A stretch of DNA of 64,000 nucleotides from Nitrospira sp. (GCA_035761895.1 DASTQE010000298.1:1110-65109), one strand, 5' to 3'. Positions 36,768 through 46,726 are shown, numbered from the stretch's first letter. Notes: generated by a model not told the origin, from the sequence alone. Numbers and translations: made by a program.

Positions 36768-36944
36768 AGGACCCTGCGATTCCGGGATAGGAGGAGCGCT
36801 GTGAGTCCGTCTCTTAGGTCGTACGGTAGCCGAGCTTGAGGGCAAAATACAAGAGGAAACGTGGACTTGACAGGGCCGGCATACCGGAGCGAACGTATCA
36901 CAGCAGAGCCAACCATGGCGACGTTCGAACAGGGGGGATGGGCA

Positions 36945-37721
36945 ATGCGTGGAATCGTCATGATGACAGGCGGGCTGTTGAGTGCGGTGCTTTTCACCGC
37001 GTGCGCATCAGCCGTTCCGCCGAATCGGCTTGGCGACTATGTTTCCACCGAGCGCCAGGTGAGCCAAGATGTCTTGACGCAGGTTGAACCGCGGCCGCTC
37101 AAGGCCGGCCTCGTCCTCGTGTCCGACACGGCCGAACCTGGGGCGGCACCGAATCTTCCCGACGCGGCGTTGGTCCGCCTCGGTGAAACTTTAACGGAAG
37201 ACATTAGTCGCGCGATTCCCGTGACCATTACCGAGGTGCTGCCAGCGGAGAATATTCGTCCCCAGCTGAATGGAGATTGGGCGCAATTTGCCGAGCTAGG
37301 GCGCCAGCACGGCCTCGATTATCTCGCCGTCGTGGTGCTGTCCAGTACCGAACAGGAATATCCAGTCACCTTGTTTCTCGGGTGGACAGCCCATGCACAG
37401 CCCGGCCTTCGCCGCGACAACTGGTCGCTGCTGGAATTCGCGCTACTGGACTTGAAGAACAAAGTCTCGCTGATACAAGCGGAGGGACGGGGCTGGGCGA
37501 CGTTGGACTGGCCAACGGCCCCTGGAATCAATCAATGGTACCCCGTGGTGTACCTCCGGCCTCAGGATCCGGAGCGAAGAATTTGGCCTCCGACATACGA
37601 GGGAGCGCCGAACACGTTACGGGTGGTGTCATTCGACCAGGCGGCAAAGCGCCTGACGTTGAAACTTCAGAATTCGTACATCGGGCAGCTCCAGGCCATG
37701 GCGGAGAGGCCCGCCTCATAG
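36945..37721 (+). CDS. Hypothetical lipoprotein
   Basis: Lipobox FTAC; alpha/beta periplasmic domain. Confidence 0.7.
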   Translation: MRGIVMMTGGLLSAVLFTACASAVPPNRLGDYVSTERQVSQDVLTQVEPRPLKAGLVLVSDTAEPGAAPNLPDAALVRLGETLTEDISRAIPVTITEVLPAENIRPQLNGDWAQFAELGRQHGLDYLAVVVLSSTEQEYPVTLFLGWTAHAQPGLRRDNWSLLEFALLDLKNKVSLIQAEGRGWATLDWPTAPGINQWYPVVYLRPQDPERRIWPPTYEGAPNTLRVVSFDQAAKRLTLKLQNSYIGQLQAMAERPAS

Positions 37722-37889
37722 CCTGCATCCTCGATCATCGCTGTCGGCGGATCGCCGTCCCATTCGGGTGGCTTGTGCTTCCCGAAGGGGACGATTAGTC
37801 TTTGAAGGCCTTGGAATGGATAGTGTAGAATGCATGGGTTCATACCCATCTCATCAGGATATTGAATAACCTTCCGGAGGATTACGGTC

Positions 37890-39419
37890 ATGGCTACGTG
37901 GCGTGAGAACGGTGGTGCTCTTGGCTTCGCGAGTTGTGTGTGTGTCTTTGCTCTTGCCTGTACCCTGAGCCCGCTCGCAGGCGATCCCGCAGCGACGGCT
38001 GCGGGGGTTCCCCCTTCAATGGCGCAGGGCTTTGCTGAGATTGTGAAAAAAGTGACGCCTGCGGTGGTCAACATCGCCGTGACCGGCGGAAGCGAAGGTG
38101 GCCGAGGGAGGCGACCGCTGCCTCCGGGCCCATTCGGCGGGCCTCCTGGCGGGCCTCCTGGAGGACCGCCCGGTGAAGAGCCAGGCGGCGAACTGCCGAC
38201 ACCTCCACCGATGCCTCCGGGTCCGCATGGACGGCCTGATCAAAGCGCCGGGTCAGGTGTCATTCTCGATCCCAACGGCTATATCGTCACGAACAACCAC
38301 GTTGTGGAAGGCGCGACACAGATCACGGTGACGTTGAGTGACCGGCGGGAATTTCCCGCCAAAATCGTCGGCACGGATCCCAAGACGGATCTCGCCGTCG
38401 TGAAAATCGAGGCCAAGGATCTTCCCTCGGTCAAATGGGCCGAATATGAAAAGCTGCAGGTGGGAGATCTGGTGTTGGCCATCGGCAGCCCATTCGGCCT
38501 GAGTTCGACAGTGACCTTGGGCATCATCAGTGCCCTCGGCCGAGGCAATGTCGGAATCGCGGATTACGAGGATTTCATCCAAACTGATGCCGCGATCAAC
38601 CCCGGCAACTCCGGCGGAGCGCTGGTGAATATGAACGGCGACCTGATCGGGATCAACACGGCGATTTTCTCGAGAACGGGCGGTTCAGAAGGCATCGGAT
38701 TTGCCATCCCGAGCAGCATCGCGTTGGACATCGTCGACAGTCTGCAGAAGACCGGCAAGGTCGTGCGTGGCTGGATGGGAGTGGCCATCCAGGAAATCAC
38801 GCCGGCACTCGCCAAGTCCTTCAAATTGCCGGAACAGCGGAAAGGGGTCCTGATCAGCGATGTCAATGAAAACGGCCCCTCGCATGCCGCCGGCGTCAAG
38901 CGGGGCGACGTCGTGGTGGCCTTCAACGGGAAGGAGGTCCAAAGCGTCAGCCAGTTGCGCAATCTGGTGGCGCGCACAGTCGTCGGCAAGGACGCGCAGA
39001 TCAAAATTCTCCGCGAGGGGAAGGAGCAGACGCTCTCCGTGCGGGTGGCCGAGCGGCCGTCCGATGAAATCTTGGCAAAAAAGGAGGCTGCACCGCCGAA
39101 GGAGCAGGGGGAGACGATTAAGCCGCCTGACAACGTGCTGGCATCGCTGAAGGTCCAGGCGTTGGACAATGCGACGATGAGCCAGCTCAATATTCCGGCG
39201 AAAACCGCCGGCGTCGTCGTCTCAGCCGTTGAACCGGGCGGGCCGGCGGAAGCCGCCGGCATTCAGCGGGGTGACGTCATTCAGGAAGTCAACCACGAAG
39301 TGGTCAAGAACCTGGACGAATATCAAAAGGCGGCGCACAAGATCAAGAAAGAGGAACTGGCCGTTCTGCTGCTCAGCCGGCAAGGGAACAACCTCTTCGT
39401 GGCGGTCAATCCGAAGTAA
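37890..39419 (+). CDS. degP: DegP/DegQ (HtrA, Do family) serine protease with two PDZ domains
   Basis: GGAGG RBS; GSGVI...TNNHVV, D in TDPKTDLAV, FIQTDAAINPGNSGG; two PDZ. Confidence 0.93.
   Translation: MATWRENGGALGFASCVCVFALACTLSPLAGDPAATAAGVPPSMAQGFAEIVKKVTPAVVNIAVTGGSEGGRGRRPLPPGPFGGPPGGPPGGPPGEEPGGELPTPPPMPPGPHGRPDQSAGSGVILDPNGYIVTNNHVVEGATQITVTLSDRREFPAKIVGTDPKTDLAVVKIEAKDLPSVKWAEYEKLQVGDLVLAIGSPFGLSSTVTLGIISALGRGNVGIADYEDFIQTDAAINPGNSGGALVNMNGDLIGINTAIFSRTGGSEGIGFAIPSSIALDIVDSLQKTGKVVRGWMGVAIQEITPALAKSFKLPEQRKGVLISDVNENGPSHAAGVKRGDVVVAFNGKEVQSVSQLRNLVARTVVGKDAQIKILREGKEQTLSVRVAERPSDEILAKKEAAPPKEQGETIKPPDNVLASLKVQALDNATMSQLNIPAKTAGVVVSAVEPGGPAEAAGIQRGDVIQEVNHEVVKNLDEYQKAAHKIKKEELAVLLLSRQGNNLFVAVNPK
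38136..38174 (+). repeat. 12-nt tandem repeat encoding (GGPP)x3 inside degP
   Basis: GGCGGGCCTCCT twice exactly plus a degenerate third unit. Confidence 0.8.
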
Positions 39420-39428
39420 CCGAGGAAG

Positions 39429-39457
39429 GCGGCGCGCGGGTCATGCCCGCGCGTCGC
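39429..39457 (+). other. GC-rich hairpin between degP and tatC
   Basis: 12-bp stem (one G-U), loop TCATG; no U-tract. Confidence 0.55.
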
Positions 39458-39475
39458 GACTCTGCTGGGGGCGCA

Positions 39476-40411
39476 GTGCTGAACGATTTCAACCGGTGGC
39501 TGCAAGATTCCGTCTTCAAGCCGCTGGAAGACAAGAAAATGCCGGTCATGGAGCATCTGGTCGAGCTCCAGGTCCGGCTCACACGGGCGGTGATCGCAAC
39601 GGCGGTCGTCTTCGTCGGCACTTTTTTTTACGCCGACACCCTCGTGAAGTGGCTGCGCATCCCCCTTCAGAATATGTTCGTGCCCGGTTCGCTCTCGTGG
39701 GTCCCGACCGATCTTCCGACAGTGCCATTTGTCTTCCTCGCGCCGGCAGAAGCCCTCTGGCAAAACGTCAAAGTCGCCGGCCTGTTCGCCCTTGTGCTCG
39801 CGACGCCGTACATCCTCCTGGAGATCTGGCAGTTCGTCGTGCCGGGCCTTCACGCGCAGGAGCGCCGATTCGTCGGGCCCTTCGTGGTGTTGAGCACGCT
39901 CGCGTTCTACGCCGGTGTCGGATTTTCTTTCTTCTTTGTGCTGCCCTTTGCGCTGAATTTTCTTGTGTCCTATGGGGTGAGCGCCGGTTTCATTCCCCAG
40001 CTGTCAATCGCGCAGTATGTTGGGTTTGCCCTCTGGTTTCTGATGGTCTTTGGATTGATCTTCGAAGTGCCGTTGGCCATTACGTTGATGGCCAAGCTGG
40101 GCTGGGTCGATGCGCCTTTCCTGAAGCGCTATCGGAAATGGGCCTTACTGGGCGCCTTTATTGTTGCCGCCGTTCTGACCCCCACCCCGGATCCCTTCAA
40201 TCAGTGTCTGATGGCGCTGCCGATGTACATTTTTTATGAGGTCGGCATCGTCAGCGCAGGGTTTTTCAACAGAAAGCCGGCGCCGGTCGCAGAACCGGGC
40301 GGTTCTCTGGCCCCCGTCGGTCCGAAAGTGATGGCGCCGGCGCCGGCCATGTCAGGTGCGGGCGACGGCGAGTACCTCGGCGTACCGACCGGCCCAAGCA
40401 GGCGGCGATAG
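39476..40411 (+). CDS. tatC: Twin-arginine translocase subunit TatC (start GTG 39476 or ATG 39443)
   Basis: MPVMEHLVEL..RL, PGL..QERRF, FEVPL, AAVLTPTPDP. Confidence 0.92.
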   Translation: MLNDFNRWLQDSVFKPLEDKKMPVMEHLVELQVRLTRAVIATAVVFVGTFFYADTLVKWLRIPLQNMFVPGSLSWVPTDLPTVPFVFLAPAEALWQNVKVAGLFALVLATPYILLEIWQFVVPGLHAQERRFVGPFVVLSTLAFYAGVGFSFFFVLPFALNFLVSYGVSAGFIPQLSIAQYVGFALWFLMVFGLIFEVPLAITLMAKLGWVDAPFLKRYRKWALLGAFIVAAVLTPTPDPFNQCLMALPMYIFYEVGIVSAGFFNRKPAPVAEPGGSLAPVGPKVMAPAPAMSGAGDGEYLGVPTGPSRRR

Positions 40412-40458
40412 CCCCGGGGAAAGGGTCACAGGTTCAACGCTAGAAAGGGTCGTGAACA

Positions 40459-41409
40459 ATGCCTCGCGAACTCAATGTCATTTCCACACCGACGTCCGGG
40501 GGCAGCGATGCCTGCACCTACATGTGGGCCTGCGCGATTTGCGACGAAAACGAATCGTGTCAGAAGGATAAGGAAGGGCATAGCCGCTGGCTGGTCGCCA
40601 AGCGGATGGAGCGGATTGAGTATAAAGTCCTGATCATGAGCAACAAGGGCGGGGTGGGAAAGAGCACCTGCACGACCAATCTCGCCGTGAGTCTGGCGCT
40701 CAAGGGATGGCATGTCGGCATCTGCGACATGGACATCCACGGGCCCAACATTCCCAAGATGGTCGGCGCTGAGGGACAAAAGCTCAAGATCAGCACGTCC
40801 GGGGGCATCATTCCGTTCCAAGCCTACAATCTCAAGATCGCCTCCATGTCCTTTCTATTGCAGAACCCCGACGATCCCATCATTTGGCGAGATGCCTACA
40901 AGTACGAGTTCATCAACCAGTTGTTGGGAGGGGTGGAATGGCAGGACCTCAACTTCTTGTTGATCGATTTGCCTCCCGGGACGGGCAACGAATCGGTGAC
41001 GACCATCGACTTGCTGGGCAATGTGAGCGGCGCCGTCATTATCACGACTCCGCAAGAGGTGGCCCTTCTGGATTCGCGTAAATCGGTCACGTTCTGCAAG
41101 GACAGCGAAGTGCCGATCATCGGCATCGTCGAGAACATGAGCGGTCTGGAATGTCCCCATTGTCATCAACAGATCGAGGTGTTTCGCAAGGGCGGGGGGG
41201 AAGCCTCGGCGCAGGACATGGGCGTGCCCTTTTTGGGGCGGATTCCGCTCGATCCGGACGTGGTCACTCAATCGGATGCCGGCGAGCCGTTTGCGATGTT
41301 TTATTCCGACACGCCCACGGCTGAGGCCTATCATGAGATCGCCAACAAGGTCGAAGCCTTCTGCAAGAAGAGCGGGTCATTGGTGAATGTCGCTCCACGG
41401 CGGCATTAA
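40459..41409 (+). CDS. mrp: Mrp/NBP35 (ApbC) Fe-S cluster carrier ATPase
   Basis: SNKGGVGKST, DMDIHGPNIPKM, IDLPPGTG, TTPQEVA, ENMSGLECPHC. Confidence 0.92.
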   Translation: MPRELNVISTPTSGGSDACTYMWACAICDENESCQKDKEGHSRWLVAKRMERIEYKVLIMSNKGGVGKSTCTTNLAVSLALKGWHVGICDMDIHGPNIPKMVGAEGQKLKISTSGGIIPFQAYNLKIASMSFLLQNPDDPIIWRDAYKYEFINQLLGGVEWQDLNFLLIDLPPGTGNESVTTIDLLGNVSGAVIITTPQEVALLDSRKSVTFCKDSEVPIIGIVENMSGLECPHCHQQIEVFRKGGGEASAQDMGVPFLGRIPLDPDVVTQSDAGEPFAMFYSDTPTAEAYHEIANKVEAFCKKSGSLVNVAPRRH

Positions 41410-41444
41410 ATGAAAACCGGGTTGTTTAACAGCCTAGTGGAACG

Positions 41445-42743
41445 ATGAAAGCCAAAGATGCCATGGCCGGCCTCACGCCACTCGACGAGGCGCAAAAAAT
41501 CGTCTTGGAAGCGACCCCCGTCCTGGGATTGGAAAAAATCCCACTGCTGGATGCGTTAGGACGGGTGTTGGGCGAGGACATCATCGTCGAACGGGACAAT
41601 CCGCCGTGGGACAACAGCGCCATGGATGGATTTGCGGTGCGCTGGGAGGACATCAAGCAGGAACACGCGATCCAAAAGCCCGTTACATTGACGGTCATTG
41701 AGGACGTGCCGGCCGGCAAGATGCCGACCAAGACGGTGGGCCCCGGTCAGGCGATCCGGATCATGACCGGTGCGCCGATCCCCAAAGGCGCGGACACCGT
41801 GCTGAAAGTGGAAGATACGGAGCATCAGCCCGATTCCGTGCGCGTCTTCAAGCCGGAACAAAAGGGCGCGAACATCCGTCCCCAGGGCGAGGATGTTAAG
41901 AAGGGCGAGCGGATCATTGCGAGGGGCACACGTATCCGACCCGGTGAAGCCGGAATGCTGGCGATTCTCGCCAAGTCCTTTGTCTTCGCCTATCAACGTC
42001 CCCGGGTGGCAATCCTCTCGACGGGCGACGAGCTGGCCGACTTGGATGAGCGTTTCAGCGAGGAAAAGATCATCAACTCCAACAGCTACGGCCTTGCGGC
42101 CGCCGTGCAGGATGCGGGCGGCATTCCATTTTTGCTCGGCATCGCCAAGGATACGCCCGCCGCGCTAAAGGAAAAAATCTCGCACGGCCTGACTGCCGAC
42201 ATTGTGGTGTTGTCAGGCGGCGTGTCGATGGGCGATTACGATTTTACGAAAGCAGTGTTTCGCGACCTCGGCGCCGAGATGAATTTTTGGAAGCTGGCCA
42301 TCAAACCGGGCCAGCCGCTGGCCTTCGGGAAAATCCAAGGCAAGCTCGCCTTCGGACTGCCAGGAAATCCCGTCTCTTCCATGGTGACCTTCGAGCAACT
42401 GGTGCGTCCCGCGATGCTGAAAATGAGCGGGCATCGGAGCTACGGCCGGCCGGTCGTGCAGGCGGTATTCCAGGAAAAGTTCTCCAAACGGCCCGATCGC
42501 CGGCACTTTCTTCGCGGCGTGCTGACCCCGGAGGACGGCGTCTTCAAGGTGAGAACGACCGGTGATCAAGGATCTGGGATTCTGACCTCCATGGTGAAGG
42601 CCAACTGCCTGATCGACGTGCCGACCGAAGTTGAACGTCTCAATCCCGGAGATCTGGTGTCCGTGCAATTGCTGAGCGGAGAAGCCTGGACAAATCAGTC
42701 CGAATCGAGTCAGACCGGTCCACACCGGCTGTCTTGCTGTTGA
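41445..42743 (+). CDS. moeA: Molybdopterin molybdenumtransferase
   Basis: DNSAMDGFAV, IMTGAPIP.GAD, STGDEL, SGGVSMGDYD, KPGQP, GLPGNPVSS. Confidence 0.95.
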   Translation: MKAKDAMAGLTPLDEAQKIVLEATPVLGLEKIPLLDALGRVLGEDIIVERDNPPWDNSAMDGFAVRWEDIKQEHAIQKPVTLTVIEDVPAGKMPTKTVGPGQAIRIMTGAPIPKGADTVLKVEDTEHQPDSVRVFKPEQKGANIRPQGEDVKKGERIIARGTRIRPGEAGMLAILAKSFVFAYQRPRVAILSTGDELADLDERFSEEKIINSNSYGLAAAVQDAGGIPFLLGIAKDTPAALKEKISHGLTADIVVLSGGVSMGDYDFTKAVFRDLGAEMNFWKLAIKPGQPLAFGKIQGKLAFGLPGNPVSSMVTFEQLVRPAMLKMSGHRSYGRPVVQAVFQEKFSKRPDRRHFLRGVLTPEDGVFKVRTTGDQGSGILTSMVKANCLIDVPTEVERLNPGDLVSVQLLSGEAWTNQSESSQTGPHRLSCC

Positions 42744-42831
42744 GAAAGGAGTCACTGGTCAATGGTCATTGGTCACTGGAGTAGAGAACAGCGCTCCATC
42801 GCCAGACGATTGATCATTGACCGTTGACGGC

Positions 42832-43356
42832 ATGCCGGTCCCCATCGTTTGCTTCGTCGGAAAATCGAACAGCGGCAAGACGACGTTCATTGAACGAGTC
42901 ATTCCGGAACTTGTCAGAGGCGGATACAAAATCGCCACGGTCAAGCATGCGGGGCATGGCTTTGATCTCGATACGGAAGGCAAGGACAGTTGGCGCCATA
43001 AACAAGCCGGCGCGAGTAGCGTGGTGATTCTCTCGAAGGGCAGCATGGCCATGTTCGCCGACGTGTCGGATCAGCTGAAGGTCGAAGACATCCGTGACCG
43101 CTATCTGGACGGCTCTTATGACTTGATCATCGCAGAGGGCTGGAAGCACGAAGGTTATCCCAAAATCGTCATCATTCGTGAGCAGATCGGGGAGATTCCG
43201 ATATCTCCGGACGGCTTATTGGCGGTCGTGTCAGACAAACCGATCGACTTGCACGTCCCCCGGTTCGATTTGAATGACGTCCAGGCAGTGGCGGCGCTGA
43301 TCATGAAGCATTTCCCTCTGCGACGTGCGCGCGCGGAGCATGAACTGGACGTCTAG
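42832..43356 (+). CDS. mobB: Molybdopterin-guanine dinucleotide biosynthesis protein B
   Basis: VGKSNSGKTT, VKHAGH.FD.D.EGKDSWRH, DLIIAEGWK. Confidence 0.93.
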   Translation: MPVPIVCFVGKSNSGKTTFIERVIPELVRGGYKIATVKHAGHGFDLDTEGKDSWRHKQAGASSVVILSKGSMAMFADVSDQLKVEDIRDRYLDGSYDLIIAEGWKHEGYPKIVIIREQIGEIPISPDGLLAVVSDKPIDLHVPRFDLNDVQAVAALIMKHFPLRRARAEHELDV

Positions 43357-44047
43357 AACCACCATTATCCTGGTTCTAGCCGCCGGAGCCCTGGCGCTCG
43401 GTGCCGTCGCCGTTCCCTTGACCAACCATCCGAAATTCTGCGCCAGTTGCCACACGATCAAGCCATCACACGACAGTTGGGTCACATCCTCTCACAAAGA
43501 GGTGACGTGTGTGACCTGCCATGTGAGGCCGGGAGTGGCTGGATGGATCCATGACAAGGCCTGGGCCGGAACAAAAGACGTGGCTATCTATTTCTTTGGT
43601 ACACCGACGGAGCCGCATAATCTTAGAGCCAGGGTCGACTCTAATGTCTGTCTCAGTTGTCATCAGCACATTCTTCGCACGTCGGAAGTGGCGCCCAGGG
43701 ATCTTCCTGCGCCGGTCAAGGACGTTGGTCTTGTGATGAGCCATCGAAAACACATGGAGGCCTTCGGCGTCCGCAATCAAGGTGAGGGGTGTACGACGTG
43801 CCATGCGGGGGTCGTGCACGATCGGCCGATCAAGGGTTATCCCGTGGTCATCCCTCGCGGGCACGTGTCCACCGATACCAAACCCTGGAATCCGGATTAT
43901 CCTGAGGGGTCGTATCTTCGAACCCGGGCCCTTGCGGATTGCTTTCGTTGCCACGACGGCAAGGCTGAACATCAAGGCAACGTGCTGGATCGCAAGTGCG
44001 AGACCTGTCACCTGCCGGAAAAAATCAAGGATTTCTTGTCATTCTAA
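43340..44047 (+). CDS. Membrane-anchored hexaheme cytochrome c with NapC/NirT/NrfH-type N-terminal domain
   Basis: One N-terminal TM; six CxxCH (CASCH, CVTCH, CLSCH, CTTCH, CFRCH, CETCH). Confidence 0.88.
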   Translation: MNWTSRTTIILVLAAGALALGAVAVPLTNHPKFCASCHTIKPSHDSWVTSSHKEVTCVTCHVRPGVAGWIHDKAWAGTKDVAIYFFGTPTEPHNLRARVDSNVCLSCHQHILRTSEVAPRDLPAPVKDVGLVMSHRKHMEAFGVRNQGEGCTTCHAGVVHDRPIKGYPVVIPRGHVSTDTKPWNPDYPEGSYLRTRALADCFRCHDGKAEHQGNVLDRKCETCHLPEKIKDFLSF

Positions 44048-44078
44048 ACACACTGAACACACCACGCCGATCCCGGCC

Positions 44079-44810
44079 ATGACGACACCAATCCTCCAAG
44101 CCAGTCACTTGCAAAAACGGTTCGGCGACTTCACCGCCGTTGATGACATCTCCTTTTCCATCCGTCCGGGCGAGATCCTCGGCTTGCTGGGGCCGAACGG
44201 AGCGGGAAAGACCACGACGATTCACATGTTGTTGGGCCTCATCACGCCGACGGCCGGCTCTGTCCACGTCTTCGGGATGGATCTGGCCACCCATCGCGAG
44301 CAGATTCTTCAGCAGGTGAATTTCTCCTCGACCTATATTTCGATGCCGCTCGCGCTCACCGTGGAAGAGAATCTGTGGGTGGTCGCCCGATTGTATGGCC
44401 TCTCTGACATCAAGCGGCGCGTTGACGAGATCGTCAAGAAGCTCGAAATGGAGGATTTCCGTCAGAAGATCACGCGAAAGCTGTCCTCCGGGCAGATGAC
44501 AAGGTTGACGCTGGCGAAGGCCTTTCTCACCGAGCCGAAAATCCTGTTCCTGGATGAGCCGACGGCCAGCCTCGACCCGGACATCGCCCATAAAATCCGC
44601 GCCCTCTTGAAAGAGGAGCGGCGCTCGGCGGGCCTCAGCATTCTCTACACTTCGCATAACATGCGCGAAATGGAAGAGATGTCGGATCGCATCATCTTTC
44701 TCCAGCGAGGAAAGATCGTGGCCGAAGGAACGGCACAGGAAATCGTTTCGCGGTTCGGCCAGGCGGATCTTGAAGAGGTCTTTCTTAAAATCGCGCGCGA
44801 GTCTCGCTAG
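44079..44810 (+). CDS. ABC transporter ATP-binding subunit (ABC-2 exporter type)
   Basis: GPNGAGKTT, LSSGQ, FLDEPT, SH switch. Confidence 0.93.
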   Translation: MTTPILQASHLQKRFGDFTAVDDISFSIRPGEILGLLGPNGAGKTTTIHMLLGLITPTAGSVHVFGMDLATHREQILQQVNFSSTYISMPLALTVEENLWVVARLYGLSDIKRRVDEIVKKLEMEDFRQKITRKLSSGQMTRLTLAKAFLTEPKILFLDEPTASLDPDIAHKIRALLKEERRSAGLSILYTSHNMREMEEMSDRIIFLQRGKIVAEGTAQEIVSRFGQADLEEVFLKIARESR

Positions 44811-44830
44811 AATTCCTAAGCGGAAAGGGT

Positions 44831-45250
44831 ATGCCACACACCGTCATTGATTTTGGCATGGGCACGATCATCGGGGGGTTGGCGCTCAGCGCGTGCTGGG
44901 GCTGGCTGTGGTTCACCATCGGCACGGTTGGCCTTGCGCGCGGTGTCTGCAGCGTCCGCGTGGTGATCAATAGTTTGGCGGTGGGTCTCAGCCCTCTCTT
45001 GCTCGGATGGGGCATCTGGTGGATGAGGGCTGAAGTCTTCGTGCCCAACACCGCCTTTGTCGCAGGACTGTTCGTCATGCCGCTGGCATTGGTCGGACTC
45101 GGCCTGCGCAAGGCCCCCGACGGACGTCGTGCGGGCCTCCACATGGCCGAAGGCATACGACACCTCAGGGACGAGTTGCTGGGGCTGCATCATGACTGTG
45201 GGGGGTGCGGGCATGATCATGGCACGGGCACCACGGGAGGGCCCACGTGA
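44831..45250 (+). CDS. Small membrane protein (about 3 TM) with C-terminal HHDCGGCGHDH motif
   Basis: GGAAAGGG upstream; hydrophobic segments; stop overlaps permease start (GTGA). Confidence 0.7.
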   Translation: MPHTVIDFGMGTIIGGLALSACWGWLWFTIGTVGLARGVCSVRVVINSLAVGLSPLLLGWGIWWMRAEVFVPNTAFVAGLFVMPLALVGLGLRKAPDGRRAGLHMAEGIRHLRDELLGLHHDCGGCGHDHGTGTTGGPT

Positions 45251-46038
45251 AGTTCCACCGTGTCAGCGCGCTGGTCGCGCGCCATCTCTATCTCTACCGG
45301 CGGAGTTTGCCCAGAATCATGGAGATTTTCTATTGGCCCTTTCTGGACCTCGTCATCTGGGGATTCATCACGATGTACCTGGTGAAGTACCAGCCTCAGG
45401 TCCCGGGATTCGTGACGTTCTTCCTGGGAGCCTTGATTCTCTGGGATATGCTGTTTCGTGCTCAGCAAGGCATCACAATCTCGTTTCTTGAAGAATTGTG
45501 GGCGAGAAATCTCATGAATCTGTTCGCGAGTCCGCTTACGCCCGCCGAGTTCCTCGCGTCGACCATCGCGATGAGTATTTTCAAAGTGACGTGCGTTTCG
45601 TTTGTGATGGGCATCTGTGCATGGCTGTTCTATGGGTACAACGTGCTGGTCATGGGGGTGTGGCTGCTGCCGTTCGTTTTGAATCTCGTCATGACAGGGT
45701 GGATTATCGGGGTGCTGACCACCTCCCTGATCATGCGGTTCGGACAGGAGGCGGAGATTCTCGCCTGGAGCCTCGTGTTTCTGTTCCAGCCCATTTCCTG
45801 CGTCTTTTATCCTCTCGAGGTCCTGCCCCTGTGGCTTCAGGCCGTGGCCTGGATCAACCCTGCGGCGCACATCTTCGAAGGCATGCGTGCGGTGCTTAAG
45901 GGCGGCGCTGCTCCGCTCTCCCATCTTGCCTGGGCCGCCGGGTTGAACGGAGCACTTCTCATCGGGGCCGTCGTGTTGTTTTACAAAACGTTTGCCTATT
46001 GCAAGGTGCAAGGCTCGCTGGTGCGGGTCGGAGAATGA
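45247..46038 (+). CDS. ABC-2 type permease
   Basis: About 6 TM; NLMNLFASPLTP.EF; VFYP.EVLP.WLQ.VA..NP. Confidence 0.9.
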   Translation: MKFHRVSALVARHLYLYRRSLPRIMEIFYWPFLDLVIWGFITMYLVKYQPQVPGFVTFFLGALILWDMLFRAQQGITISFLEELWARNLMNLFASPLTPAEFLASTIAMSIFKVTCVSFVMGICAWLFYGYNVLVMGVWLLPFVLNLVMTGWIIGVLTTSLIMRFGQEAEILAWSLVFLFQPISCVFYPLEVLPLWLQAVAWINPAAHIFEGMRAVLKGGAAPLSHLAWAAGLNGALLIGAVVLFYKTFAYCKVQGSLVRVGE

Positions 46039-46297: not shown

Positions 46298-46630
46298 ATG
46301 GGTTCGAAGATTTACGTCGGTGGTCTGCCCTATTCGGCAACTGAGCAGCAGTTGAGCGATCTCTTCAGCGCGCATGGCGCGGTGGCCTCTGCGCGGATTA
46401 TCACGGACAAGTTCACGGGCCAATCCCGCGGATTTGGATTCGTAGAGATGTCCTCGGACTCCGAGGCACAGGCCGCGATTTCGGCGCTCAACGGCTCGGA
46501 CATGGGCGGCCGGACGTTGACGGTGAATGAAGCGCGTCCCCAGGAGCCTCGTAGCGGGGGGGGCGGCGGCCGCGGCGGTTTCGGTGGCGGTGGAGGCCGT
46601 GGTCCCGGCGGAAAGCGCGATCGCTGGTAA
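46298..46630 (+). CDS. RRM RNA-binding protein with Gly-rich tail
   Basis: AAAGGAGG RBS; RNP2 IYVGGL, RNP1 RGFGFVEM, LTVNEARP, GGGGGRGG tail. Confidence 0.95.
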   Translation: MGSKIYVGGLPYSATEQQLSDLFSAHGAVASARIITDKFTGQSRGFGFVEMSSDSEAQAAISALNGSDMGGRTLTVNEARPQEPRSGGGGGRGGFGGGGGRGPGGKRDRW

Positions 46631-46653
46631 GCGGAGCAAGACCTGGAGCTTTT

Positions 46654-46685
46654 CAAGGGGCGCCATCACGAGATGGCGCCCCTTG
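46654..46685. terminator. Bidirectional intrinsic terminator
   Basis: CAAGGGGCGCCATC-ACGA-GATGGCGCCCCTTG (14 bp) between convergent genes; TATTTT follows on +. Confidence 0.8.
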
Positions 46686-46726
46686 TATTTTGTGGATGAG
46701 TGATGGGAAGCGCACGAACGCAGGGA

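Follow-up and report, generated by a model that had tools for sequence, protein, structure and literature searches.

In Nitrospira, the nitrite oxidoreductase (NXR) is a soluble periplasmic enzyme, and how it is linked to the membrane and to the pool of quinones is a standing question in the field, whose answer bears on reverse electron flow and on the switch to nitrate reduction with hydrogen or formate in these widespread nitrifiers. A stretch of 64,000 nt from a Nitrospira sp. metagenome-assembled genome (GCA_035761895.1, DASTQE010000298.1:1110-65109; hereafter the window) raises this question at one locus, where genes for twin-arginine translocation (Tat), iron-sulfur (Fe-S) cluster delivery and molybdenum cofactor (Moco) synthesis lie in one run with the genes of a hexaheme cytochrome c and an ATP-binding cassette (ABC) exporter. 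A preliminary description had read eight of these genes as a dedicated assembly line for a Tat-exported molybdoenzyme whose own genes lie elsewhere, the cytochrome being its electron link in the membrane. Is the locus such an assembly line for NXR? Our analysis shows that the block is not dedicated to NXR and that the run consists for the most part of housekeeping genes that serve protein export and the synthesis of the molybdenum cofactor. With moderate confidence, we favour the explanation that an old Tat/Moco housekeeping block received two insertions, an Mrp-type carrier and the hexaheme cytochrome, at the base of the NXR-bearing Nitrospirales, and that the cytochrome is dispensable and serves an accessory route of the quinone pool.

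The source genome comprises 3.33 Mb in 336 contigs at a completeness of approximately 90%, and its genes were assigned by Pfam and NCBIfam profile scores. From position 37890 to 46038 on the plus strand, the run reads degP/htrA, tatC, mrp, moeA, mobB, the hexaheme cytochrome gene, an ABC ATPase gene, the gene of a 139-aa membrane protein and an ABC-2 permease gene. The eight co-directional genes with short gaps or overlaps given in the preliminary description were recovered at the same coordinates on this strand; the conserved run, however, begins one gene earlier, with degP/htrA, which ends 23 nt before tatC. Intergenic gaps within the block measure 20–73 nt, aside from two overlaps, one of 17 nt between mobB and the cytochrome gene and one of 4 nt between the genes of the small membrane protein and the permease.

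The order of these genes is highly conserved among relatives. A scan with one genome per species yielded 128 loci encoding the cytochrome, of which 80 were examined, all 80 from Nitrospira or Nitrospiraceae. Order and strand are identical in every locus that holds tatC, mrp, moeA, mobB, cytochrome, ABC ATPase and permease genes (56/56), with median junction gaps of 47, 44, 17, 6, −32 and 23 nt along these seven genes. degP directly precedes tatC in 58/58 loci at gaps of at most 89 nt, and mobB and the ABC ATPase gene flank the cytochrome gene in all 76 loci containing both junctions. We labelled the Nitrospirales families f1 to f4, of which f1–f3 bear NXR and f4 does not. The block is intact in the two further NXR-bearing families f2 and f3 (loci L104-L106 and L110), with flanking genes that vary between lineages, and the permease is conserved at its position in all families, the NXR-less f4 included. 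With the cytochrome ATG at 43340, the 17-nt overlap is correct; eight divergent lineages retain both this start codon and the overlap of the cytochrome gene with the mobB stop codon. Such an arrangement is far beyond chance, and the block behaves as an operon-like unit.

The core of this unit, however, does not follow NXR. The comparison of nitrite oxidisers with non-oxidisers, proposed in the preliminary description as a check, showed a conserved order in NXR-bearing lineages, but the core order is also present in f4, where loci L102 and L103 read tatC-moeA-mobB-ABC ATPase-permease in the same order without mrp or cytochrome. No nxrA match was found in the f4 genomes, and this family fits the description of UBA2166, the only Nitrospirales family without NXR (Kop et al. 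2025). Hence, the tatC-moeA-mobB-ABC core is not confined to genomes that encode its supposed client enzyme. Beyond the order, degP, tatC and mobB are adjacent in another Nitrospirota class (locus L109), and that tatC is the sole copy of its genome.

Copy numbers within the source genome are also informative. moeA and mobB are each single-copy and must, for this reason, also serve the formate dehydrogenase, whose cytoplasmic alpha subunit is encoded on contig C61 adjoining a NuoF-like gene. Synthesis of molybdopterin guanine dinucleotide (MGD), which had been assigned to the block, is represented there by mobB; MobB is only an accessory GTPase, however, and a MobA-like guanylyltransferase gene lies on a different contig (C180). 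The genome has another tatC, a paralogue with 35% identity to the block gene, on contig C316 (C316:15412-16224, corresponding to L127:2413-3225, minus strand). All Nitrospirales tested, the NXR-less family included, have two TatC paralogues, and the other Nitrospirota tested have one. An NXR-specific TatC was ruled out, since the NXR-less family has both paralogues. Dedicated maturation operons carry their own chaperone or adjacent enzyme genes, as in torD/torA and narJ/narGHI. Neither is seen here: Pfam and NCBIfam profiles revealed no TorD/NarJ-type protein among the block genes, and a TorD-like NXR chaperone is reported to be encoded beside nxrC in N. moscoviensis, outside this block (Kop et al. 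2025). In agreement with the preliminary description, no catalytic molybdoenzyme of PF00384 type was found in the window or on its contig, in a scan that covered this molybdoenzyme family only.

Elsewhere in the genome, NXR is represented only by a trace of nxrA at one end of contig C335 (5-193), an N-terminal fragment of 63 residues that is 92% identical to the NxrA of a relative; given this fragment, NXR exists in the organism, though unassembled or unbinned. Contig C204 (L123:176-10962) carries two EB_dh/NxrC-like genes, a B12/radical SAM gene, genes for TPR and NHL proteins and two tandem pentaheme cytochrome genes. This content agrees with the conserved cluster of NXR accessory genes in Kop et al. 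2025, and the pentahemes, whose locus tags in N. moscoviensis are NITMOv2_3614/3615, follow NXR in their distribution just as the hexaheme cytochrome does. In several relatives, the NxrC/pentaheme cluster lies 45–70 kb from the tatC-mobB block. In addition, an ActB/QrcB-like protein is encoded on contig C283, next to a pentaheme, and NuoG fragments are also present.

Taken in its broadest form, the assembly-line proposal holds that all eight genes are a dedicated maturation and electron-transfer module for NXR, in which the cytochrome would anchor the enzyme in the membrane and form its electron link. The conserved, co-directional block in NXR-bearing Nitrospirales, the twin-arginine motif of NxrA (SRRQFLK), the restriction of mrp and the cytochrome to NXR lineages and the proximity of the NxrC/pentaheme cluster in several genomes all speak for such a module. 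These observations stand, but the word dedicated does not: the core exists without NXR and outside the order, single-copy moeA and mobB are needed for formate dehydrogenase too, mobA lies elsewhere, the reported chaperone is outside the block and both TatC paralogues predate NXR. Moreover, the cytochrome was lost where the NxrC-cluster pentaheme genes were kept, and its transcript is low compared with nxr during nitrite oxidation, within the part of the published ranking considered below. We regard this module as improbable.

Two genes of the block do follow NXR, the first being mrp. Full-length orthologues of the block Mrp (75–81% identity) occur only in NXR-bearing families; elsewhere, only Mrp paralogues of 37–47% identity were found, which do not have the Cys-motif N-terminus. 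This N-terminal motif, CTYMWACA(I/L)CDE...C (CX5CX2CX5C), is invariant across f1–f3. The protein further contains a NUBPL P-loop domain and a CPHC (CxxC) bridging motif, which assign it to the Fe-S carrier family, with scores under the equivalog cut-offs of MrpORP (317 vs 450) and ApbC (199 vs 348). In N. moscoviensis, the orthologue bears the annotation of a NUBP1 homologue. In the literature searched, we found neither the Mrp insertion nor the stepwise formation of the block.

The second gene encodes the cytochrome. A hydrophobic stretch at approximately residues 7–27 is followed by the heme-binding motifs CASCH, CVTCH, CLSCH and CTTCH, plus CFRCH and CETCH. The PF03264 match (42.5 bits against a gathering cut-off of 24.1, residues 8–168) places the protein in this family, with a four-heme NapC/NirT core and a two-heme C-terminal extension of PF14522 c7-like similarity. 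By sequence, its only solved relative is NrfH (2J7A chain C, E = 2e-7). Across 31 homologues, D72, K73, G77 and D80 show little or no variation, K73 and D80 none, and these two residues align with the FKAIAGARD stretch of 2J7A chain C; in NrfH, this Lys...Asp stretch lines the site of menaquinol binding. A further six His residues (52, 93, 135, 138, 160 and 175) are likewise fully or almost invariant in these homologues, and bis-His ligation of all six hemes is possible, since six extra conserved His suffice. In NrfH, heme 1 is bound by a CxxCHxM motif with methionine as ligand; here, the heme 1 motif reads CASCHTI and has no Met, with I40 invariant in the 31 homologues. An AlphaFold2 model built from the 31-sequence alignment is of low confidence (mean predicted local distance difference test score of 40, predicted template modelling score of 0.23) and places a helix at residues 3–29. 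The membrane helix, the PF03264 match and the NrfH alignment support the preliminary description of the cytochrome as a quinol-dehydrogenase-type multiheme protein.

The similarity to NrfH raises the possibility that the cytochrome is an NrfH-type small subunit acting as quinol donor to NrfA or an octaheme ONR. This role was suggested for the NS4 Nitrospira genome in PMC12542776, which calls the cytochrome nrfH-like, and it would fit both the best NCBIfam match, NrfH (TIGR03153, E = 1.7e-16), and the closest solved structure. Yet the TIGR03153 score reaches 60.5 bits against an equivalog cut-off of 134.2, there are six hemes instead of four, the heme 1 Met is absent and no nrfA lies nearby; furthermore, nrfAH occurs in 23/446 Nitrospirales genomes, as opposed to approximately 94% of sampled genomes for the cytochrome. 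Score, heme number, heme 1 motif, context and distribution rule out an identity with NrfH, and we consider the small-subunit role very improbable. A match to TorC (NF011606) stays at 20.7 bits against a cut-off of 455, and adjacency to torA/dorA is absent. Judged by its sequence, the cytochrome is a predicted variant quinol-dehydrogenase-type membrane protein, neither NrfH nor TorC.

With respect to distribution, full-length orthologues of the cytochrome (57–90% identity) were found in 51/54 sampled f1/f2 genomes, 3/3 f3 genomes and 0/2 f4 genomes, and the rest of the phylum sample gave only weak matches to its N-terminal NrfH-like part. In a search of 1.84 billion representative proteins, a limit of E <= 1e-30 left only 16 matches, most of them fragments. 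One genome (G194) listed as having nxrA without the cytochrome was dismissed, as the contig breaks off directly behind moeA and the assembly lacks mobB as well. The restriction of the cytochrome to NXR lineages is already in the literature: Kop et al. 2025 (Table S12) count NIDE3339/NITMOv2_3674 among 140 genes diagnostic of NXR-bearing Nitrospirales. Because the cytochrome had been flagged in this comparative study, the advance made here is modest.

More distant relatives of the cytochrome provide clues to its possible partners. In the seven genomic contexts inspected, no Moco or Tat genes were found, and the neighbours are redox partners. The two closest relatives outside Nitrospirales, both six-heme proteins (47% and 39% identity), are encoded directly downstream of a pentaheme cytochrome, and these pentahemes are 39% (E = 2e-99) and 31% (E = 5e-36) identical to the second pentaheme of contig C204. 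By sequence comparison, this suggests a conserved pentaheme and hexaheme pair whose genes became separated in Nitrospirales. Two loci (L118:2130-11608 and L120:1473-12223) encode six-heme relatives (40–43% identity) in a conserved cluster with fumarate hydratase, FMN-bind/Fe-S proteins, an FAD flavoprotein and malic enzyme; this cluster looks like an uncharacterised quinol-linked respiratory module.

These contexts also bear on the idea that the cytochrome has nothing to do with NXR and is a general quinol:periplasmic-acceptor oxidoreductase, which might, for instance, bypass complex III towards soluble cytochrome c and the terminal oxidases or feed NirK, with a neutral position behind mobB kept by operon inertia. 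The wider six-heme family has varied partners and never stands beside Moco or Tat genes, class I cytochromes c come after the closest relative, the gene is dispensable, and NirK and many other cytochromes have the same NXR-lineage distribution (Kop et al. 2025). The 17-nt overlap with mobB, on the other hand, is conserved in divergent lineages and implies selection for co-expression, and in the two closest relatives the partner is homologous to a pentaheme of the NxrC cluster. We consider a general oxidoreductase of this kind rather unlikely.

According to the explanation we favour, the ancestral Nitrospirota unit would have been degP-tatC-(moeA)-mobB, which the ABC-2 exporter would have joined in the order Nitrospirales. 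The block would supply Tat translocation and the last steps in the synthesis of the molybdenum bis-pyranopterin guanine dinucleotide cofactor (Mo-bisPGD) to every client enzyme of the cell. NXR, the main enzyme of Nitrospira, is a Tat-exported protein with this cofactor and Fe-S clusters. mrp and the cytochrome gene would then have been inserted at the base of the NXR-bearing Nitrospirales. With its extra four-Cys site, Mrp would most likely add Fe-S delivery for the very abundant, Fe-S-rich NxrAB. The cytochrome would most likely oxidise quinol at the conserved Lys/Asp site near heme 1 and pass the electrons along its six hemes to periplasmic multiheme partners, for which the pentahemes encoded with NxrC appear to be the best candidates. 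The result would be an accessory route from the quinone pool to periplasmic NXR or the cytochrome c pool, used, for example, in nitrate reduction with hydrogen, formate or storage compounds. No coupling of NapC/NrfH-type proteins to the proton-motive force is known, and thermodynamic reasoning therefore makes uphill quinone reduction by nitrite-derived electrons via the cytochrome unlikely.

Several observations weigh against the link between the cytochrome and NXR that this explanation contains. First, the gene is cleanly absent in two species of one genus (loci L100 and L101), where mobB and the ABC ATPase gene lie 85–170 nt apart and the rest of the block is intact; both species retain the pentaheme pair, and one has a near-intact nxrA. 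The cytochrome is dispensable, as shown by its clean deletion in two species that keep NXR accessory genes. Second, NITMOv2_3671-3674, comprising the cytochrome and ABC genes, do not appear among the top 855 N. moscoviensis transcripts, the part of the published ranking considered here, in which nxr genes hold ranks 1–3 (Mundinger et al. 2019). Third, the phyletic link rests on one gain event common to approximately 140 other genes; owing to this single event, it is confounded with phylogeny. Finally, the pentaheme pairing rests on just two contigs of unknown taxonomy, and other six-heme relatives occur in unrelated contexts, with fumarate hydratase/flavoprotein/Fe-S clusters or decaheme partners. 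The membrane electron link of the preliminary description is, in view of the gene losses and the low transcript rank, possible but unproven.

Two details belong to these data. In a cytochrome-less Nitrospira (genome G209, L099:1470-1560), a single 1-nt insertion splits the frame of an otherwise intact nxrA, which could be an assembly error or early decay. In the same N. moscoviensis list, obtained from a nitrite chemostat and considered down to rank 855, the ranks are 107 for htrA, 448 for tatC, 574 for nubp, 487 for moeA, 282 for mobB and 24 for rbpF (Mundinger et al. 2019). These ranks fit co-transcription from tatC to mobB and a cytochrome gene that is transcribed less or used under other conditions.

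A bolder proposal combines both insertions: the hexaheme and the NxrC-cluster pentahemes would be the missing wire between NXR and the quinone pool, serving quinol-driven nitrate reduction or redox balancing, Mrp would have been recruited for NxrAB, and both would have been acquired with NXR and co-expressed in the Tat/Moco operon. We give this proposal a small chance. The block offers two testable candidates whose genes entered the genome at the same time as NXR: a putative quinol dehydrogenase with six hemes and an Fe-S carrier resembling Nbp35. All other genes of the run belong to ordinary housekeeping, a result that guards against over-reading synteny, and no link of the ABC-2 exporter to molybdoenzymes was seen.

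Table 1 Positions of the genes and signals at the tatC-mobB locus, in coordinates of the window.
Feature	Position	Strand	Evidence or remark
Sigma-70-like promoter match upstream of degP	37802..37831	+	TTGAAG-18-TAGAAT, 9/12 matches, weak evidence
degP/htrA, periplasmic serine protease with two PDZ domains	37890..39419	+	Pfam Trypsin_2 and PDZ
tatC, Tat translocase core subunit	39443..40411	+	PF00902 209 bits; TIGR00945 185.7 vs cut-off 132.7
mrp, Nbp35-type Mrp/NUBPL Fe-S cluster carrier ATPase	40459..41409	+	PF10609 301 bits
moeA, molybdopterin molybdotransferase	41445..42743	+	MoeA_N, MoCF_biosynth and MoeA_C domains
mobB, accessory GTP-binding protein of MGD synthesis	42817..43356	+	PF03205 151 bits; TIGR00176 143.2 vs 76.2
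Membrane-anchored hexaheme NapC/NirT/NrfH-type cytochrome c, 235 aa	43340..44047	+	Six CxxCH; PF03264 42.5, PF14522 42.6
ABC transporter ATP-binding protein, DrrA/NodI-like	44082..44810	+	PF00005 114 bits; best NCBIfam match drrA, under cut-off
Small membrane protein, 139 aa	44831..45250	+	No family match (Pfam, NCBIfam)
ABC-2 type permease, 4-nt overlap with preceding gene	45247..46038	+	PF01061 48.6 bits
rbp, RRM-type RNA-binding protein gene and intrinsic terminator	46298..46685	+	Gene 46298-46630; NF058537 109 vs cut-off 100

The individual gene calls are listed in Table 1. TatC and MobB exceed the cut-offs of their equivalog models, and MoeA has three Pfam domains that are all above cut-off, with an NF007960 score (402.4 bits) slightly under the cut-off of 440. 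The promoter match upstream of degP is only suggestive, because six sites of this kind occur where 3.0 +/- 1.7 would be expected. A terminator scan gave no convincing terminator inside the block, and an Rfam scan no Moco riboswitch or other RNA element in or near it. Downstream of the permease gene, rbp ends the co-directional run and is probably its own transcription unit, given that the gap after the permease gene (259 nt in the source genome) is always at least 220 nt in relatives and that the N. moscoviensis orthologue rbpF stands at transcript rank 24, compared with 282–574 for the genes upstream of it. In every relative the leader of rbp is long (220 nt or more), and a strong terminator with a 14-bp stem lies 3' of it (46654-46685). 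A sub-threshold Rfam match to BjrC68 RNA (46637-46691) was discarded, as it merely coincides with this terminator.

Two further proteins of the region are variable or restricted. The small membrane protein shows an overall identity of 35–78% and keeps a C-terminal H-x-C-G-G-C-x-H-x-H tail in approximately 50 loci; its gene is missing from approximately 20 loci, marking it as a variable accessory gene, and the protein may be a metal-binding accessory of the exporter. Upstream of degP, positions 36861-37721 encode a 286-aa protein without Pfam or NCBIfam match, the position of which is conserved in most Nitrospiraceae loci and not in other families.

How does the locus compare with known systems? 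Published Nitrospira genomes contain the same genes in the same order: the loci NITMOv2_3670-3679 of N. moscoviensis and around NIDE3339 of N. defluvii hold htrA, tatC, nubp, moeA, mobB, the cytochrome gene, ABC genes and rbpF, of which only the cytochrome was flagged by Kop et al. 2025 as specific for the NXR lineage. In the literature searched, we found no functional analysis of the block and no papers naming its locus tags.

The Mrp/ApbC/Nbp35 (NUBPL) carriers, including MrpORP of Desulfovibrio, share the P-loop NUBPL domain and the CxxC motif with the block Mrp, and its N-terminal Cys cluster resembles that of eukaryotic Nbp35. It differs from these carriers in being a third paralogue confined to NXR-bearing Nitrospirales.

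The cytochrome has the N-terminal membrane helix, the four-heme PF03264 core and the Lys...Asp pair after heme 2 in common with NrfH of Desulfovibrio vulgaris and with NapC/NirT/CymA, but these proteins have four hemes, whereas six are present here, and no reductase gene adjoins it. TorC and DorC feed the Tat-exported Mo-bisPGD enzymes TorA and DorA. The likeness to these pentahemes is conceptual, consisting in a NapC-type core with one or more extra hemes and a possible role as donor to a periplasmic molybdoenzyme; the cytochrome described here, however, has a two-heme extension, and its gene is not adjacent to that of an enzyme. Cytochromes c554 and cM552 (CycA/CycB) of ammonia oxidisers resemble the arrangement seen in the closest relatives outside Nitrospirales, with a c554-like multiheme protein beside a NapC/NirT-type membrane cytochrome, although the heme numbers differ (five and six here) and the two genes are unlinked in Nitrospirales.

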